Shown: in pieces, positions 2,458 through 49,563 of the stretch
Position numbering within the stretch: the stretch's first letter is position 1
Layout of the letters: each line of letters opens with the position of its first letter
From: Acidobacteriota bacterium
GTDB taxonomy: Bacteria; Acidobacteriota; Vicinamibacteria; Vicinamibacterales; JAFNAJ01
NCBI GenBank assembly: GCA_016789685.1
Contig: JAEUQQ010000397.1
Location: forward strand, 1-49,563
DNA: 49,563 bases
Direction: 5' to 3'
Program-made: the position numbers and the translations under genes
Notes under the pieces: model-generated
The model's database searches: none
The model's input: the letters and a program-made list of their open reading frames with translations, nothing else
What the model was told of the DNA's origin: nothing

Positions 2458-2476
2458 GTTGTGCAACAGGATAGGG

Positions 2477-7125: not shown

Positions 7126-7272
7126 CAGCGGCGCAGCGATGCGGGCAGCGGGATAGGCGTCTCGGGTCGCGGCGTCCTGGGGCACGGCGCCCCGATCATA
7201 GCGCCACGCGCGATCCGGGGCCGGCCGGCTCAACCGCTCACGCCCCGTCGCCCCGGGTCCGATACTCCGGAT

Positions 7273-15048: not shown

Positions 15049-17436
15049 TCATCCGGGCGGCGACATCGGGGTGAGGCACGGCCTGATGTCGTCGAGCGCG
15101 CGCGGGAACAGTCCCGGCTGCGTCGGATCATCGAACACGTCGTCGACATCATCCGGATGGAACGCTCGCGACAGCCGCTGCGCGAACGTGTCGCGCAACA
15201 CCCGCACGTAGTGCGCGACATCGTAGTCGCGCGGGTCCTCGTCGTCCACCACGCGCCAGCTGCCGCCCGTGGCGCGGTAGATCCTGATGCGCTCGTTGGC
15301 GCGCCAGGTCGTGCGGCCGCTCGAGAGCACGGCTTCGTACGACGCTTCGTGCCGCTCGTCGCGCACCTCGCGATATTCGCGCGGCGACTTCGTGAGCCGC
15401 ACGAGCGACGACACCTCGCGCGTCGGCACCTCGCGCCGGTGCAGCGCCAGGATGACCTCGTGAAAGGCCTCGCGCACCCCCGCGACGTCATCGACGAGGA
15501 GGCGTCCGATGGCCCGGCGCAAGAACGCCTCGCCGTACGGCTCGGCGCGGCTCGACCTGAACCCGACGCCCCGCAGCAGCAACTCGCCGTCGTACGAGAG
15601 CAGCGCGTAGTTTTTCGGCTCGTGCGACAGCATCGCGCGATAGCGCCCTTCGAACTCGAGTTGTACCAGGGGCGGCAGCAGCGCACCCACCTCGGCCACC
15701 ACGCGACGTTCGTCGGCCTCGGTCCAGCCGTCGGGCACGGCGAAGTACACGCCATCGGTGTCGGCCTCGAGCAGCATCACGCCACGCGCCGCGAGCTCAC
15801 GGCACAGCAGGTCGAGCGTCTCGCGTCCGCGCCGGGTGACCTCGTTGGCCGCGTGCACGTCGGCAAACCGCGTGAGCGCGCCGCCAGCGGCGAGGTAGCC
15901 GTAGGCCGAGTTCACCACGATCTTGAGCGCGGCCGACATCGCCTCGTGCGTGAAACGTTCGGCCGATCCCGTCGGGAAGCGGCGCGCGTCGGCCTTCGCG
16001 GCGAGCCGGCGCTCGACGAGGCCATCCACCAGCGCCAGCAGCGCGCCGAGGTGATCGCGCGCGGGCCCAATCGCGAAGGCGCGCATCAGCGACGGATACA
16101 GGCTTGCCACGTCGGCCTTCACGACCCGGTGGGCGACACCCGCCGCAAACAGGTGCAGGGCCGCGCCGCTGTGCGGCGTCCCATCGCCCTCCTCGTGCGC
16201 CGGCAGCGCCTTCCCCGCCCTGAGGTAGGCGCGCACCAGCAGCGGGTCGATGACACCGGTCGCCGCGCCCGCATCGGCGAGCCGTTCGTAGCGACGCGGC
16301 GCCATGCGCGCCAGCGCAAACGCCGCCCCACCGAGCAGGCGTGACAACGCCGCCACTTCGTTGACGTCGTCGATGGCGTAGCGGCGGACGCGATCGGGAT
16401 CACGCCGGTAGACCTCGGCGACCTCGCCCCCCCGGATGTACTCGCGGTCTGGCCCCGCGATGCCGAAGTGCCGGGCCACGGCCTTGAGCCCGTGTCCCGG
16501 AAGGTCGCGCGCCGAGAACGCGTGGCGCAGCACCGCATCCATCGTGTCGATCAGCTCGCGCCCCGGCACCACATACCGGAACTTCCGCGACGTGGCGCCG
16601 CGGTCGTCCGAGACGCCGCGCTGCGCCGGGCGCGTGCGGAACCCCGGCGGCCCGATGCGCCCGAGCGCCAGCGGTACGCCCAGGCGCGCCGCGCGTCGAT
16701 GCAGGAAGGGCAGGTCGAACCCATGCAGGTTGTGGTTCTCGATCACGTCGGGATCGGCCCGTTGCACGAGCGCGACGAAGCGCTGGATCAAGTCGGCTTC
16801 GGCGGCATCGCCCTCACCGTCGGCCTCGAGCGTTGTCGCGCGCCCGGCAGGGTCGCGCACCGCGATCAGGAAGATGCGGTCGCGGTCGGCGTGCAGCCCG
16901 GTCGTCTCGAGGTCGAACTGGAGCCGTTGTACCTGGTCGTAGGCAAGATCGCGGAAGTACGTCCGTCCCGTCGCGACGAGGTATTGCTCTTCTGGTGGCA
17001 GCAGGACCGATGCGGTCTTGCCGAGGTCGCGCAGGTGCGTGATGTGGCGCTGGGCACGGCGCGAGGCGCAGACGAGCACCTCGGAAGCGAGCGCCTGCCC
17101 CGTGTCGGCGCTCGCCAGGAAGCGCAGCGCGCCGGGGCCCTCGAGTTCGCGGCACGTCACGCCCCGCGCATCGCTGGCCCCGGGCGCGGCGATCGCCGAT
17201 TCGAGCGGGAAGTCGAGCAGGATCCACGGCCTGAACCGCGCCTGCTCGCGCGTGAGGAGCCCGGAGTCCGGCTCGCGGCGCCAGACGCTCGCGCGTCCGT
17301 CCATGTCGGCCCACACCGACACGATGCCGGGCGTGGGGTCCCATCCCCACAACCACTCGTCGGTGGATCCCTGCGAGCGCGCGCCGCGGTCGCTCGATGT
17401 CGACAGGATCACGGCTCGAGTGTCGCTGTCATTCAC
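15049..17436 (-). CDS. polB: Family B DNA polymerase with 3'-5' exonuclease domain (Pol II-like)
   Basis: 795-aa ORF with a GTG start. Exo I is FDLETTG, Exo II is NHNLHGFDLPFL, Exo III is YAIDDVNEV. Pol motif A is DVASLYPSLM, motif B is KIVVNSAYGYL, motif C is LEADTDGVYF. Confidence 0.88.
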   Translation of the reverse strand: MNDSDTRAVILSTSSDRGARSQGSTDEWLWGWDPTPGIVSVWADMDGRASVWRREPDSGLLTREQARFRPWILLDFPLESAIAAPGASDARGVTCRELEGPGALRFLASADTGQALASEVLVCASRRAQRHITHLRDLGKTASVLLPPEEQYLVATGRTYFRDLAYDQVQRLQFDLETTGLHADRDRIFLIAVRDPAGRATTLEADGEGDAAEADLIQRFVALVQRADPDVIENHNLHGFDLPFLHRRAARLGVPLALGRIGPPGFRTRPAQRGVSDDRGATSRKFRYVVPGRELIDTMDAVLRHAFSARDLPGHGLKAVARHFGIAGPDREYIRGGEVAEVYRRDPDRVRRYAIDDVNEVAALSRLLGGAAFALARMAPRRYERLADAGAATGVIDPLLVRAYLRAGKALPAHEEGDGTPHSGAALHLFAAGVAHRVVKADVASLYPSLMRAFAIGPARDHLGALLALVDGLVERRLAAKADARRFPTGSAERFTHEAMSAALKIVVNSAYGYLAAGGALTRFADVHAANEVTRRGRETLDLLCRELAARGVMLLEADTDGVYFAVPDGWTEADERRVVAEVGALLPPLVQLEFEGRYRAMLSHEPKNYALLSYDGELLLRGVGFRSSRAEPYGEAFLRRAIGRLLVDDVAGVREAFHEVILALHRREVPTREVSSLVRLTKSPREYREVRDERHEASYEAVLSSGRTTWRANERIRIYRATGGSWRVVDDEDPRDYDVAHYVRVLRDTFAQRLSRAFHPDDVDDVFDDPTQPGLFPRALDDIRPCLTPMSPPG

Positions 17437-27740: not shown

Positions 27741-29759
27741 ATGAAACGACTCCTGCTCGCCCTGGCCTGCGGCACGACGGTCGCCGCCGCTGCGCCAGAC
27801 GTCGAATGGCGCCTGTACCTGGCGTCGATTGCCGCCGCCAACGGCGGGCTGCGCACGCACGAGACGTCGGTGACGCGGCGCTGGCTCGACGAGGCGCCAG
27901 TCACGCATCGCGGATGGGAGTGGCGCTACCTCGACCGCCTCGCTGACCTGAGCCTGCGATCGCAGGCGGCCCATGCCGGCGCCATCACGTCGCTCGCCGT
28001 GAGCGCCGACGGCCAGTGGCTGGCCACGAGTTCTCTCGACAAGACGGTGAAGGTCTGGGACGCCCGTTCGGGTGCGCCCGCCGCAACACTCGAGGGCCAC
28101 GGCGCCACCACGTGGACGCCGGCATTCAGGCCGGGCACGACCGAACTCGCCACCTTCGGATCCGACGGCACGGTGCGCGTCTGGTCCTGGCGCGAGGCGC
28201 GCGAAATCCGCCGGTTCGAGCGCGTCGGCAACGGCATGGGCGCGCTTGCGTGGAGTCCAGACGGCGCGCTGCTCGCCGCAGCGTCGTGGACGTTCGTGAA
28301 GGATCGCGGCGTGGTGGGGTGGATTCACGTCTGGGAGGCCGCCACTGGCGCCGTGCGCCTCGAGACCGAATACGGCGTCAAGCCGATCACGACGATTGCG
28401 TTCAGGCCCGACGGCCAGCAGGTTGTTGTCGGGACGTGGGACGGCTGGATCGGAGCGTTCGCGCCCACCGGCGACGGCCGGCCCGCCTTCGAGATCACGC
28501 TGCCCATGGACGACTCGTATCCCGCCCTGCAGGGCGTGGCCTTCTCACCCGACGGCGCGCTGTTCGCCGCCACGGCAAAAGACGGCCTCGCGCGGGTCTA
28601 CCACAGCGCCGATGGACGCCTGGCGCGCACGCTGACCGGGCACGCGCGCTGGGCCAACGCTGCCGCGTTCGGCATCACCGGCGCGTGGGTCGCCACCGCG
28701 TCGAGCGACGAGACCATCCGGCTCTGGGACGCGCGCACCGGCAGGCCACTCCGTGTCCTCCACGGCCACACGGCGTCGGTCAACGCCATCGCGGTCACGC
28801 CTGACGGCACCCGGATGATCAGCGGCGCAGCCGACGGCACCCTGCGGTGGTGGGACGCGGCGCTCGCCGACATCAGCGCGACCACCTGGCGTCACGATGC
28901 CGGCAACGTCTACGGCATCGACATGGCCCCGTCAGGGTCGCGCATCGTGACCGCCGGCTGGGGCGGCCGTCTGACGATGTGGGATGGTGACACCGGTCGG
29001 CAGGTCTGGCAGAAGCCCGTGCACGAGACGTCGGCCAACGCGGTGGCCTTCAGCCCCGACGGCACGCGGCTGATCAGCGGGGGCAACGACGGACGCCTCC
29101 AGGTCACGTCGGCCGCGACGGGCGAGGTCGTCGCGACGTGGGAACACGTCACCGACGGTCGCGCGGCCGGCATCGCGTGGAGCCGCGACGGCCGTTACGT
29201 CTTCGCCCCATCGTCGCGCCCGCACGGCAAGCTGTGGAACGCCGCCACCGGCACCGTGCACCACACGATCACGGGCACGAAGGGAGAGATCTACGACGTC
29301 GCCTTCAGCCCAGACAGCCGCCGGGTGGCCGTCGCGTGGACCAGTGGCGACATCCGCGTCGTGGATGTCGCGACGGGCGCCGACGCGTTTGCGCTCTCGG
29401 GCCACGAGGGTGCGGTGTACGCCGTCGCGTGGCATCCCGACGGCTCGCTGGTCGCCACCGGGGGCGCCGACCGGATGATCCGCGTGTGGGACGCGTCGAC
29501 GGGACGACTGCTCCGCACGATGTCGGGCCACACCGAGCTGGTGTACTCGCTCGACTTCTCGCCAGACGGCCAGCGACTCGTCTCGGCATCGACCGACCAG
29601 ACGGTCAGGCTCTGGGTACCGGCAAGCGGAGACGCCACGCTCACGCTGCCGTTTGCCTCGCAGGTCTACGGGGCGCAGTTCACGAGGGATGGGCGCCGCC
29701 TGGCCGTGTTGCCGATGGACGACACGGTCGTGATGCTCGACGGTTCATCGAAGCGTTGA
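27741..29759 (+). CDS. WD40-repeat protein (about 13 blades), secreted or anchored
   Basis: 672-aa ORF. After an N-terminal GWEWRYL segment it shows iterated H..V.....SPDG..LA(T/S)...D.T(V/I)(K/R)(V/L)WD units. Confidence 0.88.
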   Translation: MKRLLLALACGTTVAAAAPDVEWRLYLASIAAANGGLRTHETSVTRRWLDEAPVTHRGWEWRYLDRLADLSLRSQAAHAGAITSLAVSADGQWLATSSLDKTVKVWDARSGAPAATLEGHGATTWTPAFRPGTTELATFGSDGTVRVWSWREAREIRRFERVGNGMGALAWSPDGALLAAASWTFVKDRGVVGWIHVWEAATGAVRLETEYGVKPITTIAFRPDGQQVVVGTWDGWIGAFAPTGDGRPAFEITLPMDDSYPALQGVAFSPDGALFAATAKDGLARVYHSADGRLARTLTGHARWANAAAFGITGAWVATASSDETIRLWDARTGRPLRVLHGHTASVNAIAVTPDGTRMISGAADGTLRWWDAALADISATTWRHDAGNVYGIDMAPSGSRIVTAGWGGRLTMWDGDTGRQVWQKPVHETSANAVAFSPDGTRLISGGNDGRLQVTSAATGEVVATWEHVTDGRAAGIAWSRDGRYVFAPSSRPHGKLWNAATGTVHHTITGTKGEIYDVAFSPDSRRVAVAWTSGDIRVVDVATGADAFALSGHEGAVYAVAWHPDGSLVATGGADRMIRVWDASTGRLLRTMSGHTELVYSLDFSPDGQRLVSASTDQTVRLWVPASGDATLTLPFASQVYGAQFTRDGRRLAVLPMDDTVVMLDGSSKR

Positions 29760-33966: not shown

Positions 33967-36678
33967 ATGTCGATCCATGCCAGGCCGAGTGCCGAGCGCC
34001 GCTGGCGGCTGCCCGCGACGACCCTCGGCATCTCGCTGGCCGTCACGCTCCTGGCCTGGATCGTCGTCGATCGGCAGGTCGAGCGCTCAGAAGCCGCCAG
34101 GTTCGAGCGCCTGACCGATCGCGTGGTCACACGCGTCGCCGACAGTTTCGACATCGCCGACCGCGCCGTACGCAGCGGCCAGATCCTCCTCAGGCAACGC
34201 ACCACGGTTTCGTTCGCCGACTGGCGGCACTTCGTCGAAGCGACGATGCCGTACTTCCACCCCGGCATGGTCGGCATCGGCTACGTCGAGCGCATCGGGC
34301 GCGACGAGACCGACGCGCTCGAACAGCGGCTGCGGGCAGAAGGAGCCAGCGACGTCCGCGTGCAACGCCTCGGGTCGAACCCGCAGCGCTTCGTGGTGAC
34401 GCGCATCGAACCCGAGCGCCGGAACGCCGGGGTGCTCGGTCTCGACGTCGGCTCAGGCACCACGCGGCGCGGCGCGGCCGAACAGGCCATGCTGACCGGG
34501 CACGCTGTGCTCTCGCACCGCACCAGTGTCATCGAAGGCGGCAAGGAGTACCCGGGCTTCTTCCTGTTTGCGCCTGTCTACCGGCACGGCGCGCCCGTCG
34601 AGACGCCCGATCAACGCACGTCGGCCCTGCACGGCTGGGTGTACGTCTCGCTGCGCATCGACGAACTGCTCGAGGGACTCGACGAGGCGACCGCGCGCCA
34701 GATCGCCTTCACGGTCTCTGAAGACGAACGACCGGCGGGCACGCCGCCGTTCTACCGCCTCGCGGGCACGCCGTCACGCGGCCAGGGGCGAACACTCGCG
34801 CGCGAACTCGCGCTGCACGGGCGCAACTGGCGCTTCGACTTCGCGGCCCGGCCGGCGTTCCGCACGTTTGCCGACCGCTCGCTGCCGCTCGTGGTGCTCG
34901 CCGCCGGGCTCATCGCCTCGGTGCTCGCCACGCTCCTCGCGCTGGCGCTGCTCAACGCCCGCCGCCGCGCCGAGGGCCTGGCCGAGCGGATGACGGCGCA
35001 GCTGATCGAGTCGAACGCACAACTCGAAGACGCGGCCGCGACCGCCAGCCGTCTGGCGCTCGAAGCCACGCGCGCCAACGAGGCCAAGAGCCGCTTCCTC
35101 GCGATGATGAGCCACGAGCTGCGCACGCCGATGAACGGGGTGGTCGGCATGACCAGCCTGCTCCTCGACTCGCCGCTGTCGGCCGACCAGCGCGAACTGA
35201 CCGAGACCATCCGGACCAGCGGCAACGCGCTGCTGACGATCATCAACGACATCCTCGACTTCTCGAAGATCGAGTCCGGGCACCTCGAGCTCGACGACCT
35301 GCCGTTCGACGTCCGCGCGTGCGTCGAGGGCGCGCTCGACGTCTGCGCGCCCCGGGCCTTCGAGAAGGGCATCGGGCTGCACTACGACATCACCCCCGAG
35401 GTGCCTCGCCTCGTCTCGGGCGACGCCATCAGGCTGCGCCAGGTGCTCATCAACCTCCTCGGCAACGCGATCAAGTTCACCGAGCGCGGCGAGGTGGTGA
35501 TCCGGGTGCGCGGCCACGCGGGCGAGGGTGTGCACGACCAGCTGTCGTTCTCGGTCTCAGACACGGGGCCGGGCATTGCGGCCGGGCACCTCGAGCACTT
35601 GTTCGAGTCGTTCAACCAGCTCGACGCGACGGTGGCTCGCCGCTTCGGGGGCACGGGCCTCGGGCTGGCCATCAGCCAGCGACTCGTCACCGCCATGGGC
35701 GGCAGCATCGGCGTCGAGAGCGCTCGCGGCGCGGGATCGACGTTCTCGTTCACGGTACGGGCCCCGGCACTGGAGGCCGCCGTGGATCCGGCCGAGGTCG
35801 CGGCCATCCAGGCGCTCGCCGGCCGGCGCGTTGCCGTCGTGAGCCCGCACGCGACGGCACGGCGCATCATCGCCGACACGCTTGCCGCGTGGTCGGTGAC
35901 GTGCATCACTGCCGACAGCACCGACGCCGCGCTCGGCGCGGTGAGCGGCCGGGCGGGCATCGACGCCGTCGTGTTCGACCTGGCCGCGCTCGACGAGACC
36001 ACGATCGCATCGGCGCGCGCGCTCGCCACGGCGCCTGGCACGCCGGTCCGCGTCATCGCCCTCGCGCCGCCGGGCGCGACACAGGTCGGCGATCCGTTCA
36101 CCATGGCGGTGACCAAGCCGGCCAGGCCGCACGCCCTGCTCCACGCGCTTGCACGTGCGATCCAGGATCATGTGCCGGCGGTGCCCGCCAGTTCTTTGAT
36201 CGTGGCTGCAGGGCAACTCGCTGCGGGCGCACCGGCCGGGGCCGCCGAGGCCAGACGCGCACCCGAGCGCATCCTGCTCGCCGAAGACAACCTGGTGAAC
36301 CAGCGCGTGGCGACGCTCATGCTGCGGAAGCTCGGCTGCCCGGCAGACATCGCCAACGACGGCGCCGAGGCCCTCGCAGCCGTCGAGCGCGAGTCGTACG
36401 ACATCATCCTGCTCGACGTGCAGATGCCCGAGGTCGATGGCCTCGAGGTCGCACGACGCCTCGTGGCCGCCCGCCCGGTGCCCGGCGAGCGGCCGTGGAT
36501 GATCGCCTGCACCGCCAACGCGATGCCGGGCGACCGCGAGGCCTGCCTCGACGCCGGCATGGACGACTTCATCACCAAGCCGATCCAGCGCGGCGATCTC
36601 GAAGCGGCCCTCGATCGCGCCCGTCGAGGCATCGCCGCGAGAACCACGGCCACGCGTCCTGCATCGCCCGCGGCGTGA
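33967..36678 (+). CDS. CHASE-domain hybrid sensor histidine kinase (CHASE, TM, HisKA, HATPase_c, degenerate receiver, receiver)
   Basis: 903-aa ORF. The periplasmic CHASE-like region has GIGYVERI and [10 protein letters not shown]. The H-box is [16 protein letters not shown], the N/G boxes are [16 protein letters not shown] and GTGLGL, and the final receiver is [11 protein letters not shown]...[13 protein letters not shown]...ITKP. Confidence 0.9.
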
Positions 36679-38078: not shown

Positions 38079-40925
38079 ATGGACATTGCGGCGCTCAAGA
38101 CCCTCAACCGGCTGGTCGAGCAGGTACTCGATCTCGCGCCGTCTGATCGGACGACGTGGGTCGAGAGCCTGGGGCCCGAGTACGAGGCGTTCAAACCACG
38201 GCTGCGCGCCATGCTCGACAGGCTCGAGGCCACGGGCGACGCCGCATTCCTCGCATCGCTGCCGACGTGGGACGCCACCATCGACGCCGGGCACGGCCAC
38301 CCCGGCCAGGCCTGCGCGGCCGGTGCGCTGGTCGGCCGCTACCGGCTGGTCAGTGAAATCGCGGCCGGGGGCCAGGGCGCGGTCTGGCTCGCCGAACGCG
38401 CCGACGGCATGGTCGATCGCCCGGTCGCGCTCAAGCTGCCGCTCGGCCTCGCCTTCAGGCCGGGCCTCGCCGATCGGATGTCGCGCGAGCGCGAGATCCT
38501 GGCACGCCTGACGCACCCGCACATCGCCCGGCTGTACGACGCGGGGGTGAGCGACGACGGCACGCCCTTCCTGGCGCTCGAGTACGTCGATGGCCGCCCC
38601 GTCGATCGGTTCGTCGCCGACCATCGCCTCGGGGTCGATGCCATCCTCCGGCTGTTCGTGCAGATCGTCGACGCGGTCGCCTATGCGCACGGGCAGCTCG
38701 TCATCCACCGTGATCTGAAGCCATCCAACATCCTGGTGACGGGCGACGGCCAGGTACGCCTGCTCGACTTCGGCATCGCGAAGCTGATCGACGATGCCCC
38801 GGAGCGCGACTCGACGATGACGGTGGTCGGCGGGCGCGCGTTGACCCTGGCCTACGCCTCGCCCGAGCAGGTGCTGCACGAGACGCTGGGCGTCGCGACC
38901 GACGTGTACTCGCTCGGCGTGGTGTTGTACGAGCTGCTCTGCGGCCGCCGGCCGCACGTGCCCGCGCGCGACACGAGCGGTGCGCTCGAACACGCCATCC
39001 TGCACGACGAACCGCCGCTGCCGAGCCAGGTCGCCCTCGACCCGTCACGCCGCGGCATCCTGCGCGGGGATCTCGACACCATCCTGCTCAAGGCGCTGAA
39101 AAAGGCGCCGGCCGAGCGATACGCCGCGGCGAACGCGCTCGGCGACGACCTGCGACGGTATCTCGACGGATTGCCGGTGTCGGCGAGGGCCGACAGCCCG
39201 GCCTACCGGTTGCGGAAGTTCGTGGCGCGCCATCGGCTGGCGGTTGGGGCGAGTGCCGCGGTGCTCGCGGCCGTCGTCGCCGGCGCGGGCGTCGCCGTGT
39301 GGCAGGCCCGCGTTGCGCGCGCGGAGCGCGATCGCGCCGATGCGGTGAAGGCGTTCGTGACGTCGGTGTTTCGCGACATCGATCCCGCGTTGCGCGGGTC
39401 GGGCCGCCCCCTGACGGCCACCGACGTCCTCGCGCAGGCTGTCGATCGCCTCGATCGGCGGAGCGAACTCGCCGCCGAGCCGGCCGTCAGGGCCGAACTG
39501 CTGCGCGTGCTCGGCGCGAGCTTCCTCGGGGTGGGCGACGCGGATCGGGCCAACGAGATCCTGCCCCGCGCGCTCGCAGAAACGACGACGCTCACCGGGG
39601 CCGGTTCCGACGAGGCCATCGACACCGAGATCCGCCTGGCCAGGGCCAAGTACCTCGGGGGCAAGGTCGATGAGGCCAACGCGCACGTCGCGCACGTGCG
39701 GCAGGTACTCGCCGACTCGGGCCGCCTCGCGTCCGAGGCGTTCGTCGAACTCGAGCTGCTGCGCACCGAGATCATCATCAACCGTGGCGGATTCAGGAAG
39801 CCCGAAGCCCGCACCGCGGCCGAAGAAGCGCTGGGTGCCGCCGAGCGCCTCCTGCCCCCCGTGCACCAGTTGCGGGCGCGGGCGCTGCAGCAGATGGCCA
39901 CCGTCATGCGCTGGCAGAACGAGGACGCGGCCGCGGCCGCGCACGCAGAGCGGGCGTACCGCATGTTGCTCGACGTGCAGGGCAACGACGCGCGGCACAT
40001 CAGCGTCATCATGGCGCAGAACGAATACGGACGCGCGCTGTACCAGGTCGGCCGCACGCGCGAGGCCCTGTCGCACCTGAAGGAGGCGGCGGCGAATGGC
40101 AACGCGTCGCTGAAGGACGATGCCGTGCTGCGGCAGCACCTGCTGGGCACCCTGGCGAACTCGCAGCTGCAGTTCGGTGAGGTCAAGGAGGGACTGGCCA
40201 ACCTCGACCTGGCCATCTCGCTCGATCTCAGGGGAGTGAACCTCAGCCCCGCGTACCTTGCCGGCCAGCGATTCGTCCGCGCGCGTGCGTACCTCGCGGC
40301 GCGACGACTCGAAGAAGCCCTGCGACTCTACGACGCGTCGGTGGCCGAGTACACGAAACTCGGCGACAGGAACACCCTGATGACGGCGACGAGCGAACGT
40401 GCCGACGTCCTCGTGAGGCTCGGACGCCTGCGCGAGGCCGAGCAGGCCATCGCCCCGGTCATCGCGAGCAGGGGCCGCGCGATCACGCCGGCCGTGCGGC
40501 GGGGCGTCTGGCTCCAGGCCGAGATCCACCGTCGCCGCGGCGAAACCACACGGGCGATGCCGCTGGTGCGCGAAGCCATCAACTTCGAGCCGACCAACAC
40601 CGCAAACGCGATCGCCAGGGCGCAATACCAGGTCACGCTGGCGCTCTCGCTGCTTGCCACGGGCTCCGTGCCAGACGCTCGCGCGGCCGTTGAGGCGGCC
40701 CTGGCGGCACTGCGGGCGAACCAGGGCGTCATGAACCCGATCCAGGCCGACGCCCTCGCGGCCCTGGCACAGGTCGAATGCGCCTCGGCCAACCGTGCGG
40801 CGGGCCTCGCCCTGCTCGAACAGGTCGATGCCTTCTGGCAGGCGTTCGACGCGACGCTCCCCGACGCCGTCGAGGCGGCCCGCCGCCTGCGCGACGCCCG
40901 GGCTGGCGCCACCGCCCCACGCTGA
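38079..40925 (+). CDS. Ser/Thr protein kinase with TM segment and long TPR-like C-terminal region
   Basis: 948-aa ORF. Kinase motifs: GGQGAVWLA, VALK, HRDLKPSNIL, DFGIAK, ASPEQ. A hydrophobic segment LAVGASAAVLAAVVAGAGVAVW follows, then helical repeats. Confidence 0.9.
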   Translation: MDIAALKTLNRLVEQVLDLAPSDRTTWVESLGPEYEAFKPRLRAMLDRLEATGDAAFLASLPTWDATIDAGHGHPGQACAAGALVGRYRLVSEIAAGGQGAVWLAERADGMVDRPVALKLPLGLAFRPGLADRMSREREILARLTHPHIARLYDAGVSDDGTPFLALEYVDGRPVDRFVADHRLGVDAILRLFVQIVDAVAYAHGQLVIHRDLKPSNILVTGDGQVRLLDFGIAKLIDDAPERDSTMTVVGGRALTLAYASPEQVLHETLGVATDVYSLGVVLYELLCGRRPHVPARDTSGALEHAILHDEPPLPSQVALDPSRRGILRGDLDTILLKALKKAPAERYAAANALGDDLRRYLDGLPVSARADSPAYRLRKFVARHRLAVGASAAVLAAVVAGAGVAVWQARVARAERDRADAVKAFVTSVFRDIDPALRGSGRPLTATDVLAQAVDRLDRRSELAAEPAVRAELLRVLGASFLGVGDADRANEILPRALAETTTLTGAGSDEAIDTEIRLARAKYLGGKVDEANAHVAHVRQVLADSGRLASEAFVELELLRTEIIINRGGFRKPEARTAAEEALGAAERLLPPVHQLRARALQQMATVMRWQNEDAAAAAHAERAYRMLLDVQGNDARHISVIMAQNEYGRALYQVGRTREALSHLKEAAANGNASLKDDAVLRQHLLGTLANSQLQFGEVKEGLANLDLAISLDLRGVNLSPAYLAGQRFVRARAYLAARRLEEALRLYDASVAEYTKLGDRNTLMTATSERADVLVRLGRLREAEQAIAPVIASRGRAITPAVRRGVWLQAEIHRRRGETTRAMPLVREAINFEPTNTANAIARAQYQVTLALSLLATGSVPDARAAVEAALAALRANQGVMNPIQADALAALAQVECASANRAAGLALLEQVDAFWQAFDATLPDAVEAARRLRDARAGATAPR

Positions 40926-40986
40926 CGTGGCCGGTTCTTCCCGCGCAGTGCGTAGGAACGGATACGCACCACTGGGAGGAACCACC

Positions 40987-41835
40987 ATGCGACGCACACT
41001 TGCGAGAGTCCTGCTCGGACTCGCCGCGCTGGCGCTCGGCCAGACCCTCGCGTTCGGCGATCCGTTCACGCCCTCAGGCGTGACGGTGACGGGCAGCGGA
41101 AGCCACCTGTACATCTTCGGGAGTTGCTCGACGTGCCCACGCGAGGGCCCCAGCCTGTCAGACACGGCCGGCGGCGACGGCGTGCTCAACGCCAGCACCG
41201 CGTACGGCGGAGGCCCGTTTGCCTGGATGGCATCGGCCAGCATCGTCGGCAGCTCATACCTGCCCGAGCTGAAGGCCTACGCCGAGGCGCAGGCGCCACC
41301 GCCAGACGGGCACTACGACCTGTGGGTCACGGCAAACGCGACCGCCCAGGCGAGGCAGCGTTTCGTGTTCGAGGGCCTGCTGCCCGAACTCTACACGCTC
41401 GAGTACACCGTCGACGGTGTGCTGTCGGGCGACGGCGAGTCGGTCAGCGCCGGGCTCGGCGTCTACGGTGGCGACTACGTGCCCGAACTCGAGGGCGAGT
41501 TCCAGATCACGCGGAAGGGCTCAGACCAGGTGATGTTCGCGGCCGACACGCACTCGACCTTCAGCCACACGGGCAGCATCTCGTTCACGGTCAATCCCGG
41601 CGACGCCTTCTACGTGACGGGCTTCCTCTCGGCCCAGGCGTTCTGGACCGAGTCGACGCTTGCCGGGTACGCCGACGCGTCGCACACGTTCACCTCGGTC
41701 TTCACGGCCGGCAACACGTCGTTCCTGACCGCGTCGCTGGTGCCAGCGGCACCGGTGCCGGAACCTGGCTCACTGTCGCTGGTTGTCGCCGGCCTGGTCG
41801 CCGCGGCCGGCGCTCGCCGTCGTCGTCGGGGATAA
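40987..41835 (+). CDS. PEP-CTERM sorting-domain protein
   Basis: ORF 40795..41835 trimmed to ATG 40987 (signal peptide MRRTLARVLLGLAALALGQTLA). The C-terminus VPEPGSLSLVVAGLVAAAGARRRRRG is the PEP-CTERM motif plus a TM segment plus a basic tail. Confidence 0.85.
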   Translation: MRRTLARVLLGLAALALGQTLAFGDPFTPSGVTVTGSGSHLYIFGSCSTCPREGPSLSDTAGGDGVLNASTAYGGGPFAWMASASIVGSSYLPELKAYAEAQAPPPDGHYDLWVTANATAQARQRFVFEGLLPELYTLEYTVDGVLSGDGESVSAGLGVYGGDYVPELEGEFQITRKGSDQVMFAADTHSTFSHTGSISFTVNPGDAFYVTGFLSAQAFWTESTLAGYADASHTFTSVFTAGNTSFLTASLVPAAPVPEPGSLSLVVAGLVAAAGARRRRRG

Positions 41836-41957: not shown

Positions 41958-42803
41958 TTGCTGCGTCGGCACGATCGGGGCCTGACACCAGGATTCGTGG
42001 TCGCGTCGTGCCACAATTGGCCGGTGCAGCCGCCACGCACGATCACCGTCACGCGCTACGTCACGCCGCTCCGCGAAGGCGGCTCGCTTCCGGCCATCGT
42101 CGAAGCCGATGACGATGGGCTGTATGTGCTCAAGTTCAGGGGGGCGGGCCAGGGCCCCCGGGCGCTCATCGCGGAACTGCTCGCCGGCGAACTCGCCCGC
42201 GCGCTCGGGCTCCCCGTGCCTGAGATCGTCTTCGCGACGCTCGATCCCGACCTGGCGCGCACCGAGCCCGACCCGGAGATCCACGCGCTGATTCGCGAGA
42301 GCGCGGGGCTCAATCTCGCGATCGACTACCTGCCGGGCTCGGTGACGTTCGACCCGATCGTGCATACGCTGCCGTCGGCGCTGGCCGCGCGCATCCTCTG
42401 GTTCGACGCCTTCGTCTCGAACATCGATCGCACCGCGCGCAACACCAACATGCTGATCTGGAACCGGCAGCCCTGGCTCATCGACCACGGCGCATCGCTG
42501 TACTTCCACCACGCCGACGGTTGGGAAGGCGATGCCGCTCGGCCGCGCGCGGCCTTCCCGCAGATTGCCACGCACGTGCTGCGCGGCCACGCCAGCGATC
42601 TCGCCACGGTGGACGCCGCGTCGGTGGCCGCATTGAGTGCGACCGTGATTGCCGCGATTGCCGGGTGGATTCCCGACGCCTGGCTCGACACCGCCGATGC
42701 GCCGCGCGTGCCAGCCGACGCACGAGCCGCGTACCAGCGCTACCTCGTCGCGAGGCTGGCGGCCCCGCGCGTGTTCATCGAGGAGCTGCACCGTGGTGAC
42801 TGA
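41958..42803 (+). CDS. HipA-like small kinase (the family that typically neighbours DUF3037)
   Basis: 281-aa ORF. Motifs: YVTPLREGGSLPAIVEADDDGLYVLKFRGAGQG, the catalytic-loop-like NIDRTARNTNMLIW, and IDHGASLYF. The true start may be the in-frame GTG at 42024. Confidence 0.75.
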   Translation: MLRRHDRGLTPGFVVASCHNWPVQPPRTITVTRYVTPLREGGSLPAIVEADDDGLYVLKFRGAGQGPRALIAELLAGELARALGLPVPEIVFATLDPDLARTEPDPEIHALIRESAGLNLAIDYLPGSVTFDPIVHTLPSALAARILWFDAFVSNIDRTARNTNMLIWNRQPWLIDHGASLYFHHADGWEGDAARPRAAFPQIATHVLRGHASDLATVDAASVAALSATVIAAIAGWIPDAWLDTADAPRVPADARAAYQRYLVARLAAPRVFIEELHRGD

Positions 42804-43203
42804 GGTGACGTACGACTACGTCATCGTCCGCGTCGTGCCGCGCGTCGAGCGCGGAGAGCGCGTCAACGTCGGCGTCATCCTGTCGTGCGTGGATGCGGAG
42901 TTCCTCGACGCCCGCATCGCCCTCGACGAACGACGCCTCTGCGCACTCGACGGCGGCGTGGATCTCGAGGCCGTTCGCGCCGGCCTCGACAGCATCCGGC
43001 GGATCTGCGCGGGCGGACCCGATGCGGGCGCCATCGGCGAGCTCCCGCCACGCGGCCGCTTCCGCTGGCTCGCGTCACCACGCAGCACCATCATCCAGAC
43101 GTCTCGCGTCCACACCGGGCGCACCTGCGATCCGGTGGCCACGCTGGATCGCCTCCTCGCCACCGTGGTGCTGGCGCCCGACGCCGATGCCGCACGCCGC
43201 TGA
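42793..43203 (+). CDS. DUF3037 domain protein
   Basis: This lies in the frame of track ORF 42649..43203. GTG at 42793 (or 42796 / 42805) overlaps the upstream stop. The N-terminus YDYVIVRVVPRVERGERVNVGVILSC is the DUF3037 hallmark as I remember it. Confidence 0.75.
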   Translation: MVTEVTYDYVIVRVVPRVERGERVNVGVILSCVDAEFLDARIALDERRLCALDGGVDLEAVRAGLDSIRRICAGGPDAGAIGELPPRGRFRWLASPRSTIIQTSRVHTGRTCDPVATLDRLLATVVLAPDADAARR

Positions 43204-43927
43204 TCCCCAGGCACCAGGTGCGTCGCCGTTCGCGAAGTCGTCGCGGACGCGGCTGACGACGCGCGACCTCGGACGCTTCCCGTCAGGCACGTTGTTCGAC
43301 CGTATCGGCCGGGCGGTCTGCCACGCGGAATGCCTGCCGCGCAAGGAACTGTTCGAAGCGTGGGAAGTTGCGCGCCGTGTCCGCAGGGTCTGCCGGGGCG
43401 GCCGTGTCGTCGACCTCGCCGGCGGACACGGCATGCTGGCGATGGCGATGCTGCTGCTCGACGACTCGTCGCCATCGGCGCTGGTCGTCGACACCGGCAT
43501 TCCTGCCTCGGCCGGAGGCGTGCACGACGCCATCGTCGCCACGTGGCCGCGCCTGGCGGGGCGCATCGCGTTTGCCAACGAGTCACTCGACGACGTCGCC
43601 CTCGGTCATGACGACATCGTCGTCGCCAGCCACGCGTGCGGCAGCCTGACCGATCGCGTGCTCGATCGTGCGACCGCCGCCAATGCCCGTGTCGCCGTCC
43701 TGCCGTGTTGTCACGACCACGCCATCGGTGATGCCGGCGCGCTCGGCGGATGGGTCGATGGCTCGCTGGCCATCGACATCGAGCGCGTCCACACGCTCGA
43801 ACGACGTGCCTACCGCGTGCGCACGCACACCATCTCCCCGGAGATCACGCCGAAGAACCGACTGCTGATCGCATGCCCGGTGCCACGCGGTGGGCCGCGC
43901 GACGATCGAGGGGCTCAGGCGGGCTGA
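43187..43927 (+). CDS. Class I SAM-dependent methyltransferase-like protein
   Basis: This lies in the frame of track ORF 42893..43927. ATG 43187 overlaps the DUF3037 stop by 17 nt. VVDLAGGHGMLAMAML resembles SAM-binding motif I. The functional call is tentative. Confidence 0.6.
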   Translation: MPHAADPQAPGASPFAKSSRTRLTTRDLGRFPSGTLFDRIGRAVCHAECLPRKELFEAWEVARRVRRVCRGGRVVDLAGGHGMLAMAMLLLDDSSPSALVVDTGIPASAGGVHDAIVATWPRLAGRIAFANESLDDVALGHDDIVVASHACGSLTDRVLDRATAANARVAVLPCCHDHAIGDAGALGGWVDGSLAIDIERVHTLERRAYRVRTHTISPEITPKNRLLIACPVPRGGPRDDRGAQAG

Positions 43928-44883
43928 CCGTCTGGGTCGGGCACCAGGCCCGCGGCCTGCGCGCACGCGCGCACGTGGGCCATCTGGCGGAGGACGCTCT
44001 CGAAGGGCCCCATCGCCTCGACGAGCCGCTGCTCGGTGAGGGCGTCGTCCTGGCAGACCTCGAGGATGGGTACCGTCGCTGCCTCGACGTCGGGCAGCCC
44101 TGCGCTTCCAGCGCGCGTGGCGATCTCGTGCAGCAGGCGCCGCACGTGCACGGCCCGCTGTTCGGCGAGTTGCTGTTTCGCGCTGGCGTCGAGCTGCGCG
44201 CGCTTCAACTCGGTCAGGTCGCGGACCGAGACCAGGAAGGCGGGCTCGTTCATCCACTCGAACTGCACGACACGCATCTCGCACACGCGGGCGTCGCCCG
44301 AGTGCGCCACGGTGATCTCGACGGGTTCGCCGTCGCGCACCGAGAAACCCAGCCGTTCGTCGATGAAGTCGTCGCGCCGGCGGTTGAACAGGACCAGCGC
44401 GGCGTCGTTGACGTAGCGGACGAGACCCGATCGCGCGACGACGAGGATGGCGTCGGGCGTCGCATCGAGCAGCCGCGCCGTCTGCCGGTACTGCTCGCGC
44501 GCCCGGTTCCGCTCGATCACGTAGAGCATGCAGTGCGCCAGCAGCGGACTGTTCGCATCGTCCTTGCTCATGAGATCTTCGGCGCCCTGCCGGATGGCGA
44601 ATCGCCGCGCCGATCGATCCACGGCGCCTGAAATCACGACAATGGGCGCCCCGTCGGCCGCCGGGCGGATGCGATTGAGCGTCTCGATGCCGCTCGAATC
44701 CGGCACGTGCAGGTCGAGGATGACGGCATCGACGCGCCGCGCGGCCAGCACGCCGAGGGCCTGCGCGACGGTGGTGGCGCGCAGCACCGCGAACGTCACG
44801 AATGGGGTGTCTTCGAGGCGTTCGGTCAGGAGGTCGGCATCGCCGGGGTTGTCTTCGACCAGCAGGATCCCGTAGGTCAGCAT
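43915..44883 (-). CDS. Response regulator receiver + PAS domain protein
   Basis: ORF 43915..44892. ATG 44883 gives MLTYGILLVEDNPGD and overlaps the upstream stop (ATGCTGA). Receiver residues: DNPGD, AVILDLHVPD, VVISG, MSK. The PAS-like region is LLDATPDAILVVARSGLVRYVNDAAL. Confidence 0.85.
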   Translation of the reverse strand: MLTYGILLVEDNPGDADLLTERLEDTPFVTFAVLRATTVAQALGVLAARRVDAVILDLHVPDSSGIETLNRIRPAADGAPIVVISGAVDRSARRFAIRQGAEDLMSKDDANSPLLAHCMLYVIERNRAREQYRQTARLLDATPDAILVVARSGLVRYVNDAALVLFNRRRDDFIDERLGFSVRDGEPVEITVAHSGDARVCEMRVVQFEWMNEPAFLVSVRDLTELKRAQLDASAKQQLAEQRAVHVRRLLHEIATRAGSAGLPDVEAATVPILEVCQDDALTEQRLVEAMGPFESVLRQMAHVRACAQAAGLVPDPDGQPA

Positions 44884-46481
44884 CGCGCCCATTCACCCGT
44901 GTCGCCGACGGCGACGACCGCGCCCAGCAGGAACCCCTGGGCGAACTGCACGCCGAGGTCGGCCACGACCCGCGCGTCGGCCTCGGTCTCGACGCCCTCG
45001 GCGATGATCTGCGGCCCGAGGGGCATCAGGCACCCGAGGAGGCGCTCGAGGATGCGGCGCCGCCCGGGATCGTCAGCGACGCCATGCACGACCGATCGAT
45101 CGATCTTGACGATGTCGGGTTCGAGGACGACGAGCGTCTCGAGCGAGCTCCTGCCGAACCCCACGTCGTCGAGCGCGATCAGCACGCCGGCGTCCTTCAT
45201 GGCGCGCAGGCTGGGCAGCAGCATGGCGGGGGCGCCGATCAGCTCCTGCTCTGAAAGTTCGAGCGCCACGCGCGGCCCACCCGCCTGCACGAGGATGTCG
45301 CGCAGGGCTCGTGCCGGGGTATCGAGGAACGTCGATGGAAAGATGTTCACGTGCACGCAGTCGTCGCCGGTGAGGTACTGCGTGGCCTCGATGCACCGCC
45401 TGAGGCAGAGGAGGTCGGCGGCGCACAGCACGTTGGCATGGCGGGCAGCCGAGAACAACGCGGCGGGGTGCTCGAGCGGCGTGTTCTTGGGCCCGCGGAC
45501 CAGGAACTCGTGCACGACACCGGCCGCGCCGTGGGGGCCGACGATGCGCTGCGCCATCACGCGAATCGCCTGCGGGTCGCTGAGGATCTCGCGGACGTCG
45601 GATCCGACGGGGTGCAGCGGGAGGTCGACGCCGTGCGCCGTGACACGGTCCTTGCCGGCGCGTTTGCTCGCGATGAGCGCCGACTCTGCGCCGGCCAGGA
45701 CTTCCTTGAGCGACGCCGCAAACGGCGGGATGGCGGTCAGGCCGAGGCTCACGGTGACCTCGGCGCGGATGCCGGGCACCGACACGGGCAGGGGCGTGCT
45801 GTGGATGGTGTTCCTGAGCTTGGTGGCGACGAGGAATCCCTCGGCGAGCGTGGTGTTGGGCAGCAGGACGAGGAACTCGTCGCCGCCGATGCGTCCGATG
45901 CGATCGACGGGCGATCGGAGCGCGCGCACGAGCGCGGTGGCGATGGTGCGCAGCGTGGCGTCGCCGGCGCTGTGCCCGGCCACTTCGTTGATCCCCTTGA
46001 AGTCATCGCAGTCGATGAGGATCGCGGCCGCGTGCCCACCGGCTCGCCCGAGTCCGCCGACGACCTCGAGCAGCTCCGCCTCGATGCCGCGCCGGTTGAG
46101 GACGCCGGTGAGCGGATCGACGAGGGCCAGTTCCTCGAGTTGCCGGTTCGAGCGGGCGAGTTCGGCCAGGGCCCGCACACGATCGGTCACGTCGCGCAGC
46201 AGGACGAGGTATGCGGCCTGCCGCTGCCACGGGATGGGCGCGACGCGCATCTCCATGGTGCGGCCGCTGCGCAGTTCGATCTCGGTGAGGATGTCGCCGA
46301 CCACCGGCACGCCGAAGAGTGTCCCGAGCAACTCGCCCGTCCCGACCCCGAAGGCCGACGTCGCAGCCGGATTCGCGAAGAGGATTTCGCCGTCCGGGCC
46401 CACGATGAGCACCCCATCGGGACTCTCGCGGAGCAGGGTCTGGTACTGGATGAGCGATTCGAGACGCGGCTTGGTCACCAT
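44877..46481 (-). CDS. PAS-GGDEF-EAL protein (c-di-GMP synthesis/hydrolysis)
   Basis: ORF 44877..46700 trimmed to ATG 46481 (MVTKPRLESL). The PAS region is SPDGVLIVGPDGEILFANPAA and the GGDEF region is DPLTGVLNRRG...RIGGDEFLVLL. EAL-domain blocks: HEFLVRG, LELSEQE, LDDVGFGRSSL, VKIDRS, AEGVETE, QFAQGF. Confidence 0.9.
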   Translation of the reverse strand: MVTKPRLESLIQYQTLLRESPDGVLIVGPDGEILFANPAATSAFGVGTGELLGTLFGVPVVGDILTEIELRSGRTMEMRVAPIPWQRQAAYLVLLRDVTDRVRALAELARSNRQLEELALVDPLTGVLNRRGIEAELLEVVGGLGRAGGHAAAILIDCDDFKGINEVAGHSAGDATLRTIATALVRALRSPVDRIGRIGGDEFLVLLPNTTLAEGFLVATKLRNTIHSTPLPVSVPGIRAEVTVSLGLTAIPPFAASLKEVLAGAESALIASKRAGKDRVTAHGVDLPLHPVGSDVREILSDPQAIRVMAQRIVGPHGAAGVVHEFLVRGPKNTPLEHPAALFSAARHANVLCAADLLCLRRCIEATQYLTGDDCVHVNIFPSTFLDTPARALRDILVQAGGPRVALELSEQELIGAPAMLLPSLRAMKDAGVLIALDDVGFGRSSLETLVVLEPDIVKIDRSVVHGVADDPGRRRILERLLGCLMPLGPQIIAEGVETEADARVVADLGVQFAQGFLLGAVVAVGDTGEWARC

Positions 46482-48353: not shown

Positions 48354-48365
48354 GGTCGGCACTCC

Positions 48366-49184
48366 CTAGGCACGCCGTCGGCGCTGCCCGACGCGATAGT
48401 AGTCGACGAGCAGGCCCATCATTTCGAGCGCCAGCAGCCTCGCCTCGAACACGATCGACCGGGAGTGGGGATCTGGCTGGATGGCGATGGCGCGGTCGAG
48501 CGCCGCGACGTGGAGGTCGAGCAGGTCGCGCGGGCCGCCGCCCGCATCGCCCAGGTCGGTGGCGATGCGCTCCATGTCGACGCGCGCGGCGGTCACGGTG
48601 TCGCTCCGGCGCTGCAGGTACGGCTCGAGCAGGAGGCCGTAGGCCCTGACGAGATGCTCGAACACCTCGGGATGCCGCACCGACACGGCGCCGGACCCTG
48701 CCAGCGCCGCCGTCACCGTCGTGGCCTGCGCGCTCGACGACAGCGCGCGGTAGCGCTCGAGGGATCGCTGCAGTTCGTGCAGTTGCGCTTCGCGGATCCG
48801 CGTGATGGCGTACCCGATCGCGCGCTGCAGCGTGTGGGCGCGGGCCTCGGCCTTGGCCAGGTAGTCTTGCGCGCCCGCGTCGATGCAGGCCAGCGCCAGT
48901 TGTTCGTCGTCGCTGCCGGTCAGGACCACGATGGGAACCTGGCTCGCGGTCTCGCGCAAGATGCGCACACCATCGAGCCCCTGGCTGTCTTCGAGTCGCA
49001 GGTCGAGCACCACCACGTCGACCGGTTCGGTGCGCAGCGTGTCGATCGCGTCGGCGAGCCTGGGAACGTGGACGACCTGGTAGCGTTCAGGGTCGGCCTG
49101 ATCGAACATCTCGGTCACCAGGAGCGCGTCGCCGGGATTGTCTTCGACGAGAAGCACGCGCGTCGTGGTGATCGGCGTTGTCAT
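48366..49184 (-). CDS. Response-regulator receiver fused to a helical C-terminal domain resembling the KaiA C-domain (KaiA3-like architecture); an RsbU_N-like bundle is the alternative
   Basis: 272-aa ORF ending 3 nt upstream of the kaiB ORF. The receiver is LLVEDNPGD, VVVLDLRLED, VVLTGS, DYLAK. The C-terminal 110 aa, AYGLLLEPYL...RDLLDLHVAALDRA...VFEARLLALEMMGLLVDYYRV, aligns by eye with the remembered KaiA C-terminus. Confidence 0.8.
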   Translation of the reverse strand: MTTPITTTRVLLVEDNPGDALLVTEMFDQADPERYQVVHVPRLADAIDTLRTEPVDVVVLDLRLEDSQGLDGVRILRETASQVPIVVLTGSDDEQLALACIDAGAQDYLAKAEARAHTLQRAIGYAITRIREAQLHELQRSLERYRALSSSAQATTVTAALAGSGAVSVRHPEVFEHLVRAYGLLLEPYLQRRSDTVTAARVDMERIATDLGDAGGGPRDLLDLHVAALDRAIAIQPDPHSRSIVFEARLLALEMMGLLVDYYRVGQRRRRA

Positions 49185-49467
49185 ACGGCGCCGTCTGGCC
49201 GCGAGCCGGCGAGCGGTCGTTCACGCCACGAAGATGGCAGGGAGCCTCGGCCACGGCCGGCGCCCGGGGGGCGGGCGCGAACGGGAACGATCGGCACTGG
49301 GGTCGGCCGGGCTGAGGCTGGGGGCATGGCGCGAACGCGAGTCCTGCCCAAGAGTCTCGACCTCATGCGTGCTGGTGGCTAGTCAGCCAGATTCGCGAGC
49401 GTGTCAGGATTTTCCCTACACGGCGCCCCCCCGTGCCGCGACGGCCGGCACACGACCGCCTGCGGCC

Positions 49468-49563
49468 TCAGTCGACAAGCCCGTTCTGCATGCTGTACCG
49501 CGCAATCTCGACATGGCTCGTCAGCCCGGTCTTCTCGCGGATGCGCGCGAGGTAGGTGGCGAC
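49468..49563 (-). CDS. LuxR/GerE-type HTH C-terminus, probably a NarL-family response regulator (5' part lies outside the window)
   Basis: My minus-strand translation from the window edge gives VATYLARIREKTGLTSHVEIARYSMQNGLVD, then a stop (TGA at 49468-49470). This is typical of the end of a GerE helix-turn-helix. Confidence 0.6.
   Translation of the reverse strand, partial: VATYLARIREKTGLTSHVEIARYSMQNGLVD

Follow-up and report, generated by a model that had tools for sequence, protein, structure and literature searches.

The window analysed here is a 49,563-nucleotide (nt) stretch of DNA from an Acidobacteriota bacterium (assembly GCA_016789685.1, contig JAEUQQ010000397.1), and the system in question is a set of five head-to-tail open reading frames (ORFs) packed densely on its minus strand between positions 43915 and 49184, in which a kaiB-kaiC pair is accompanied by a gene for an enzyme of cyclic di-GMP (c-di-GMP) turnover. 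The first of the five, here called gene 1 (49184..48366; 272 amino acids, aa), encodes a KaiA3-like protein with a receiver (REC) domain at aa 10–119 and a putative KaiA-like helical domain at approximately aa 170–272. It is followed by kaiB, which runs to 48060 from an ATG at 48353 (97 aa, with GGGAG 8 nt upstream) or a GTG at 48362, and by the double-domain kaiC (517 aa), which runs to 46507 from an ATG at 48060 or a GTG at 48063. The fourth gene, at 46481..44877, encodes a PAS-GGDEF-EAL protein of 534 aa (PAS at about aa 12–110, GGDEF at aa 119–279 and EAL at aa 322–520), with the codons of the GGDEF motif at 45887–45873 and those of EFL at 45509–45501. The last, a REC-PAS gene, starts at 44892 or 44883 and ends at 43915, giving a protein of 325 or 322 aa with REC at aa 9–117, PAS at aa 139–235 and a 90-aa tail. 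A 3.6-Mb contig of GCA_963853065.1 matches the window at approximately 99% identity, as do contigs from a wastewater metagenome and other metagenome assemblies. All of them carry the five genes, which are intact in six of the species' contigs.

A sequence-only reading of the window had described five minus-strand genes with minimal spacing, a distance of 25 nt from the kaiC stop to the start of the PAS-GGDEF-EAL gene, and an ATGCTGA overlap between the end of that gene and the REC-PAS start, and the coordinates bear this out. Gaps of 12 nt (gene 1 to kaiB) and 25 nt (kaiC to the PAS-GGDEF-EAL ATG) alternate with two overlaps, that of kaiB with kaiC being 1 nt (TGATG), or 4 nt (GTGA) with the GTG start, and that of the PAS-GGDEF-EAL gene with the REC-PAS gene being 7 nt (ATGCTGA) for the start at 44883, or 16 nt for that at 44892, which is the choice of gene callers on the 99%-identical contigs. 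On the question that the same reading raised of independent promoters or terminators, a simple scan of the minus strand in the cluster found no terminator-like site within the five genes and a sole, weak promoter-like match inside kaiC (47375–47348, 9 of 12 positions). The only sizeable same-strand gap in the cluster is the 283-nt intergenic region upstream of gene 1 (49185..49467, minus strand), which is the likely place of the operon promoter. The fold of this region is no stabler than that of shuffled sequence (z −0.33), and Rfam families, c-di-GMP riboswitches included, gave no match in the window. As judged from this layout, the five genes are probably co-transcribed as one unit.

KaiB and KaiC are canonical by family profile, and KaiC also by alignment. 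KaiB matches Pfam PF07689 (2e-28) and passes the NCBIfam NF006798 cut-off (117.9 vs 110), while its score of 112.7 lies below the stricter TIGR02654 cut-off of 145.3; its C-terminal block appears to resemble closely the fold-switching region of KaiB from Synechococcus elongatus. KaiC matches PF06745 in two stretches (6e-116), passes both NCBIfam cut-offs (NF006799, 724 vs 408; TIGR02655, 647 vs 546) and aligns end to end with Thermosynechococcus KaiC, including both Walker A/P-loops, both glutamate (EE) pairs, the TxxxxST phospho-site block and the cyanobacterial-type C-terminal tail. The phospho-sites presumably correspond to S431/T432 (and T426) in S. elongatus numbering. The protein is much nearer to cyanobacterial KaiC (E ∼1e-184) than to Rhodobacter KaiC (1e-109), and its best match in the PDB is 8ZN5, a reconstructed ancestral KaiC-beta. 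Its nearest relatives (84–91% identity) come from metagenome-assembled genomes (MAGs) labelled Rubrivivax, Deltaproteobacteria, Phenylobacterium, Gemmatimonadaceae and Planctomycetota, whereas the housekeeping DAHP synthase encoded elsewhere in the window (1387–2508, minus strand) has its nearest named relatives, at approximately 80% identity, in Luteitalea, Vicinamibacterales and Acidobacteria. Since the labels of the KaiC relatives span four to five other phyla or classes while the DAHP synthase, a single marker, points tentatively to Vicinamibacterales, this suggests either that the whole kai module moves horizontally or that the MAG labels are unreliable.

Gene 1 appears to supply the third component of the timer. 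Its receiver matches Pfam Response_reg (1e-20, aa 10–119) and has the phospho-accepting aspartate, with VVVLDL, VVLTGS and YLAK present in the translation. The remaining 150-aa C-terminal part is conserved, with invariant residues that include GPRD, H225 and the block RLLALEMMGLLVDYYR, and has no Pfam match; the KaiA C-terminal model PF07688 did not match gene 1 at E-values up to 1. When a profile of the C-terminal domain alone was searched against the PDB, the KaiA C-domains 1r5q, 1q6a and 1v2z were three of the top four sequence matches, at modest E-values of 0.06–0.15, and the alignments to KaiA cover the whole helical bundle. An AlphaFold2 model of this domain (pLDDT 78) gave the same picture, with all 12 of its best Foldseek PDB matches being KaiA C-domains (probability 0.97–1.0, with E again modest at 0.07–0.5) and TM-scores of 0.66–0.69 against isolated KaiA domains (1q6a, 1v2z, 5n8y). 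The domain was modelled on its own, as the full-length fold search and sequence profile are dominated by receiver matches. Homologues of the domain, located by tblastn, lie directly upstream of kaiB-kaiC in 43 of the 80 loci surveyed below, and in a Rhodospirillales MAG the homologue of gene 1 overlaps kaiB.

The architecture and synteny published for KaiA3 match those of gene 1, and KaiA3 was reportedly delimited there through reciprocal BLAST, through alignment with KaiA and through synteny, not by the PF07688 model (PMC11372060). Because its C-terminal half is predicted by profile and model to be a KaiA-like helical bundle, gene 1 is best described as a KaiA3-type protein. The KaiA3-KaiB3-KaiC3 system of Synechocystis sp. 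resembles the window in its order of REC plus KaiA-like gene, kaiB and kaiC, in the phospho-accepting aspartate of the receiver, in the KaiA-type helical C-domain and in a KaiC with ST phospho-sites; it differs in that no GGDEF/EAL partner is described for it, the host of the window is probably an Acidobacterium, and the window protein has no Pfam KaiA match. This likeness is one of architecture, fold and synteny. The sequence-only reading had taken the first receiver protein for an input or output partner of the clock, a role that gives way here to that of an oscillator component.

The KaiA-like C-terminal domain belongs to a large family, a full-library profile search having returned 1,742 representative proteins at E ≤ 0.001. 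Most of the best 150 are 260–300 aa long with the domain at the C-terminus, and a receiver is present in 56 of 72 scanned members, while others carry PAS, GAF or 4HB_MCP-HAMP domains in its place. Pfam misses the domain in nearly every member, its KaiA model matching one of the 72 (7e-4). In one 208-aa protein (P0148) part of the domain and an entire KaiB domain share a single ORF, which could be a fusion or a frameshift artefact. Two others (P0154 and P0155, 226 and 248 aa) begin with RsbU_N and carry the KaiA-like domain after it; this was considered as support for a KaiA/RsbU-type fold and rejected, as RsbU_N is there a separate N-terminal domain outside the region homologous to gene 1.

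The PAS-GGDEF-EAL protein is recognised by Pfam over all three domains (PAS_4, the best PAS model, 4.5e-8; GGDEF, 2.9e-31; EAL, 5.5e-33), and every catalytic motif that was checked is in place (DCDDFK at aa 157, GGDEF at 199, EFL at 325, ELSE at 408, DDVGFG at 438, KID at 459 and EGVE at 495), in agreement with the earlier description of an intact GGDEF motif and intact EAL metal and substrate blocks. In the GGDEF half, DPLTGVLNR, DCDDFKGIN and RIGGDEF align to RbdA, 5m3c and MorA, and in the EAL half EFLVR, VNIF, ELSE, DDVGFG, KID, EGVET and AQG align to RbdA and MorA. These two Pseudomonas aeruginosa proteins (RbdA, PA0861, 5xgb, 9e-36; MorA, 4rnh, 1e-30) are its best relatives of solved structure, with all catalytic blocks matched; they share with it a tandem GGDEF-EAL arrangement in which both active sites are conserved, and differ in being membrane-anchored multi-domain sensors with no Kai connection. 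A motif check found no RxxD inhibitory I-site in the enzyme. Judged by its motifs the enzyme looks active in both halves.

The nearest homologues of the enzyme (50–57% identity) are REC-PAS-GGDEF-EAL response regulators of uncultured bacteria found in two-component contexts. A metagenome scan with the enzyme as query found no kaiB or kaiC near 80 generic GGDEF-EAL loci. The other Kai-linked enzyme of this family, from a Planctomycetota MAG (locus L010), groups as its sister in 69 of 100 bootstraps of a neighbour-joining tree, which gives moderate support to a single recruitment of this enzyme to Kai loci. Both Kai-linked proteins have lost the normal receiver, of which the window enzyme has no trace and the L010 enzyme a degenerate form that Pfam does not detect, whereas their unlinked relatives keep it; this would fit a change in how the enzyme is controlled. 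In GC content at third codon positions (GC3), the enzyme gene, the REC-PAS gene as a whole and its 90-aa tail all match the genes around them.

The REC-PAS protein (Response_reg, 2.8e-16; PAS, 1.4e-6) is best explained by comparison with relatives of the locus. Where KaiC is most closely related, kaiC is followed by a gene for a REC-PAS-HisKA-HATPase protein, often with a second receiver, and the REC-PAS protein is 50% identical to aa 20–241 of one such kinase (locus L001), with homology ending where the PAS domain ends. Pfam detects neither HisKA nor HATPase_c in the two genes downstream of kaiC, and no kinase remnant was found in any frame, within or downstream of the REC-PAS tail (best E 0.24). 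No homologues of the 90-aa tail were detected; its GC3 of 0.88 is normal for the neighbourhood, and it is therefore probably translated. On this sequence comparison the REC-PAS gene is a kinase-less ortholog, or stump, of the kinase gene that follows kaiC in relatives. Apparent deletions in the REC-PAS gene of two near-identical contigs (L168 and L172) were considered as a sign of decay and rejected, as they are 100-N scaffold gaps.

The two receivers encoded in the operon had been called paralog-like on account of a shared LLVEDNPGDA, and they are indeed 36% identical over 119 aa (E 7e-22); both contain that block and both keep the phospho-accepting aspartate, the threonine or serine, and the lysine. 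The PAS domain of the REC-PAS protein is in turn a 33%-identical paralogue of the enzyme's PAS domain. The proposal that the second receiver protein is also an input or output partner did not hold in that form, as the protein is the remnant of the relatives' kinase, its homology stopping at the PAS domain.

How often kaiC is linked to a c-di-GMP enzyme was surveyed in 80 loci around KaiC relatives in species-representative genomes, 73 of them informative, with the same-strand gene after kaiC classed by small hidden Markov models (HMMs) made from examples verified with Pfam; the loci are not independent of one another phylogenetically, and divergent kinases may escape the HMMs. The first gene after kaiC encodes a histidine kinase in 39 of the 73 loci, a GGDEF/EAL protein in nine, a protein with only a receiver and/or PAS in nine, and in the other 16 there is no signalling gene. 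Of the nine GGDEF/EAL cases, one is L010 and the rest are Methylococcaceae loci, eight in number. In L010, with a KaiC 84% and an enzyme 52% identical to those of the window, kaiC is followed by a PAS-GGDEF-EAL gene and then by an intact REC-PAS-kinase gene. In the Methylococcaceae MAGs (L063, L065–L068, L072, L078 and L080) a PAS-PAS-PAS-GGDEF(-EAL) gene follows kaiB-kaiC within about 10 nt; the first PAS of these enzymes is 41–48% identical to the PAS of the window enzyme, and no KaiA-like gene was detected upstream in the eight loci. In L015, L018 and L042 a GGDEF-EAL gene comes second after kaiC, and two Halomonadaceae-type loci, L059 and L060, have one just ahead of kaiB. Among relatives with 71–91% KaiC identity, the gene after kaiC is nearly always that of a REC-PAS-histidine kinase, which makes the c-di-GMP link the exception. 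The linkage in these genomes is thus real but rare and lineage-specific. Its adjacency to kaiC is probably not only a matter of chance, because it is kept in the distant L010 and has recurred independently in other lineages. The conserved linkage on which the sequence-only reading depended is therefore present in the same order in L010 and recurs in Methylococcaceae, while close relatives have the kinase as their default. In-frame KaiC-kinase fusions suspected in L009, L012, L013, L020 and L079 were rejected, as the frames show normal KaiC stops.

A more direct connection is seen in an ENA metagenome contig that encodes a 633-aa KaiB-PAS-GGDEF-EAL fusion (P0084; L083 1081–2982), the KaiB part of which is 51% identical to the KaiB of the window. 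There is no kaiC on its 5.7-kb contig. This fusion shows that direct wiring of a c-di-GMP enzyme to the KaiC-binding module is possible.

Beyond the five genes, the cluster continues upstream on the same strand. The window edge cuts a REC-GerE (NarL/LuxR-type) regulator gene, of which the last 31 codons remain (49468..49563, minus strand; translation ending VATYLARIREKTGLTSHVEIARYSMQNGLVD); on the 99%-identical contigs L169–L173 it encodes a 210-aa REC-GerE protein. Read in the direction of transcription, the order there is a PAS-PAS kinase, a single receiver, a REC-PAS-HisKA_3 kinase and the REC-GerE regulator, followed by the 283-nt gap and the kai genes, which make up the downstream half of a signalling cluster of nine genes on one strand (window plus L170 4818–8886). 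An upstream REC-PAS-HisKA_3 kinase is confirmed in L010, and receiver matches at the same relative position suggest that it is also present across L001–L011. At the other end, the cluster is closed by a convergent methyltransferase gene outside the system (43187..43927, plus strand; Pfam Methyltransf_32, 5e-8; a 246-aa gene call in L169–L173), the 3′ end of which overlaps the REC-PAS stop by 13 nt.

Other signalling genes crowd the window, all on the plus strand; they encode two hybrid kinases, one with MASE11 and one with CHASE, a Ser/Thr kinase that has TPR-like repeats, and a WD40 propeller protein (as a group, 6400–9033, 33967–36678, 38079–40925 and 27741–29759). The core of the CHASE hybrid kinase is 45% identical to the core of the Kai-linked kinase of L001. 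Other features are a secreted protein with a PEP-CTERM-like signal (VPEPGSL...RRRRRG), a HipA_2/DUF3037 gene pair and an ORF that resembles family-B DNA polymerases and has an RNase H-like exonuclease domain (as a group, 40795–41835 and 41958–43203 on the plus strand and 15049–17436 on the minus strand).

The earlier statement that no characterised Kai system with a c-di-GMP enzyme as operon-encoded output was known holds in part. GGDEF/EAL genes adjoining non-cyanobacterial kaiBC were described previously (De Luca et al., 2011; PMC3164672), while a literature search for Kai systems and c-di-GMP enzymes found no paper characterising an operon-encoded GGDEF/EAL partner. The "first kaiC-context" of De Luca et al. 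is the same class of arrangement as that of the window and lists a PAS_2PAC_GGDEF_EAL neighbour, an architecture that by its domain content appears to match the Methylococcaceae PAS-PAS-PAS-GGDEF-EAL proteins encoded after kaiC. That account, however, is descriptive and at the level of a figure, with the KaiA-like gene unrecognised and the enzyme unanalysed, and the lost kinase core is the extra step of the window. The window is therefore a further example of a recorded, uncharacterised arrangement, and the idea itself is not new.

The closest functional precedent is KidA, the "Kai-interacting diguanylate cyclase A" of S. elongatus (Synpcc7942_1859), a PAS4-GGDEF-EAL protein whose PAS domains bind fold-switched KaiB and which alters the clock period through its PAS domains, the enzyme domains being dispensable (Kim et al., PNAS 2022; PMC9478674). 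According to the same study, genes for PAS proteins frequently share an operon with kai homologues (PMC9478674), and a changed c-di-GMP level has been found to shift both period and phase in Synechococcus (Yamaguchi et al., 2026; PMC13001216). KidA resembles the window enzyme in its PAS-GGDEF-EAL order and conserved catalytic residues and offers a docking model for it, the likeness being one of domain architecture; it differs in having four PAS domains instead of one, in being encoded outside the kai operon, and in acting within a KaiA/SasA/CikA/RpaA clock. SasA/CikA-RpaA signalling resembles the system proposed below in that a signalling enzyme reads the state of KaiC or KaiB, and the layout of SasA, with a KaiB-like domain in front of the kinase, is paralleled by the P0084 fusion. 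Unlike that pathway, the operon here has no kinase core, and the proposed output is a second messenger instead of phosphotransfer to a transcription factor.

Taken together, c-di-GMP as an output of this Kai module is plausible on the gene content, with the signal running either out of the timer or into it. The explanation tentatively preferred, although held with less than even confidence, is that a KaiA3-type timer has had its kinase partner replaced by a c-di-GMP enzyme that reads the Kai state through its PAS domain. The REC-PAS histidine kinase, the usual operon-encoded partner, would have been supplemented and then functionally replaced by the PAS-GGDEF-EAL enzyme. All five genes would be expressed from a single transcript, KaiC would pass through a phosphorylation cycle in which the KaiA-like protein promotes autophosphorylation and KaiB opposes it, and the enzyme would use its PAS domain to dock on the KaiB/KaiC complex, much as KidA binds fold-switched KaiB through its own PAS domains. 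The REC-PAS stump would then be an accessory, its PAS domain possibly pairing with that of the enzyme and its receiver possibly taking phosphate from the kinases encoded just upstream. For this explanation speak the dense packing, the KaiA-like domain, the canonical KaiB and KaiC and the complete catalytic blocks of the enzyme. The enzyme also occupies precisely the place that the kinase has in relatives, and the kinase core is gone. Further points in favour are the shared order in L010, the independent recurrence in Methylococcaceae and Halomonadaceae loci, the P0084 fusion, and the precedents of KidA and of the Synechococcus clock's response to c-di-GMP. A bolder version, in which the timer of this lineage has acquired c-di-GMP turnover in place of a phosphorelay as its dedicated output encoded in the operon, with PAS docking on KaiB/KaiC in one phase of the phosphorylation cycle switching the enzyme between cyclase and phosphodiesterase, and a daily or hourglass-like c-di-GMP wave gating biofilm against motility, must be regarded as quite improbable at present.

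Several observations weigh against the replacement of the kinase by a c-di-GMP output. Time-keeping by non-cyanobacterial Kai modules is unsettled for most lineages, and such genomes usually contain many GGDEF/EAL genes, so that some adjacency to kaiC would arise by chance; among the approximately 27 loci with KaiC of at least 71% identity, one has the linkage. No kai genes lie near the six nearest homologues of the enzyme for which contigs were read. A Kai-specific PAS adaptor was considered and is unsupported, since homologues not linked to Kai carry PAS domains 50–61% identical to that of the enzyme, which is therefore not a dedicated Kai adaptor. The NarL-type regulator and the two same-strand kinases upstream could be the real output. 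Finally, as the enzyme domains of KidA are dispensable for the clock phenotype, its precedent supports binding and not output. This last point leads to a different role for the enzyme, as a KidA-like modulator or input, in which the PAS domain would bind KaiB and tune the timing while the GGDEF/EAL domains, or the GTP and c-di-GMP bound by them, bring nutritional or surface-contact information into the Kai system instead of taking timing information out of it. The only characterised Kai-associated PAS-GGDEF-EAL protein does act on the period by PAS alone (PMC9478674), and the response of the Synechococcus clock to c-di-GMP (PMC13001216) points the same way. The best structural relative of the window enzyme is RbdA, and the phosphodiesterase of RbdA is stimulated by GTP at its GGDEF domain. 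The enzyme here, however, has a single PAS domain while KidA needs its first three, its gene holds the position of the presumed output kinase, and the KaiB-GGDEF-EAL fusion resembles SasA, an output kinase; a role as modulator or input is unlikely, although the likeliest of the alternatives.

That the enzyme and the REC-PAS protein share no more than a promoter with the kai genes, being run by the phosphorelay or by their own PAS signals as parts of a nine-gene two-component cluster, is unlikely. It would account for the ordinary REC-PAS-GGDEF-EAL regulators in two-component contexts without kai genes that are the enzyme's nearest homologues, for the two kinases, single receiver and NarL-type regulator directly upstream on the same strand, and for the phospho-accepting residues that both operon receivers retain. 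Yet the enzyme itself is not directly controlled by phosphorylation, because its receiver is lost, the same loss or degeneration is seen in L010, the only other Kai-linked member, and the gene order is conserved across 52% protein identity. Evolutionary debris, in which a GGDEF-EAL gene landed by chance in the kai operon, the kinase was broken and the downstream genes are decaying with no Kai role, would explain the loss of the kinase core, a 90-aa tail without detected homologues and the rarity of the linkage. It is made very improbable by the intact catalytic motifs of the enzyme, by a GC3 in the enzyme gene, the REC-PAS gene and its tail that matches their neighbours, by the five genes being intact in six contigs, where the apparent deletions are assembly gaps, and by an arrangement common to a relative as distant as L010.

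The locus bears on the role of Kai proteins outside cyanobacteria and on their connection to cell signalling. It would be a clean system in which to test for a second-messenger output from a protein timer, in that the presumed output kinase is lost, an apparently active c-di-GMP enzyme is there instead, and a KaiA-like activator is present, which makes a self-sustained oscillator conceivable. The loss of the kinase core together with the KaiA-like gene makes the operon a good candidate for experiment. The comparative picture, in which kinases are the default partner, GGDEF-EAL proteins recur as an alternative and a KaiB-GGDEF-EAL fusion exists, can guide the choice of an experimental system, and Methylococcaceae with kaiBC and PAS-PAS-PAS-GGDEF-EAL, such as Methylobacter, may provide a culturable one for the link between Kai and c-di-GMP. 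If the bolder version above is true, no Kai system before this one would have had a second messenger as its output, and the locus would link daily timing to decisions between biofilm and motility in a non-photosynthetic soil or wastewater bacterium.

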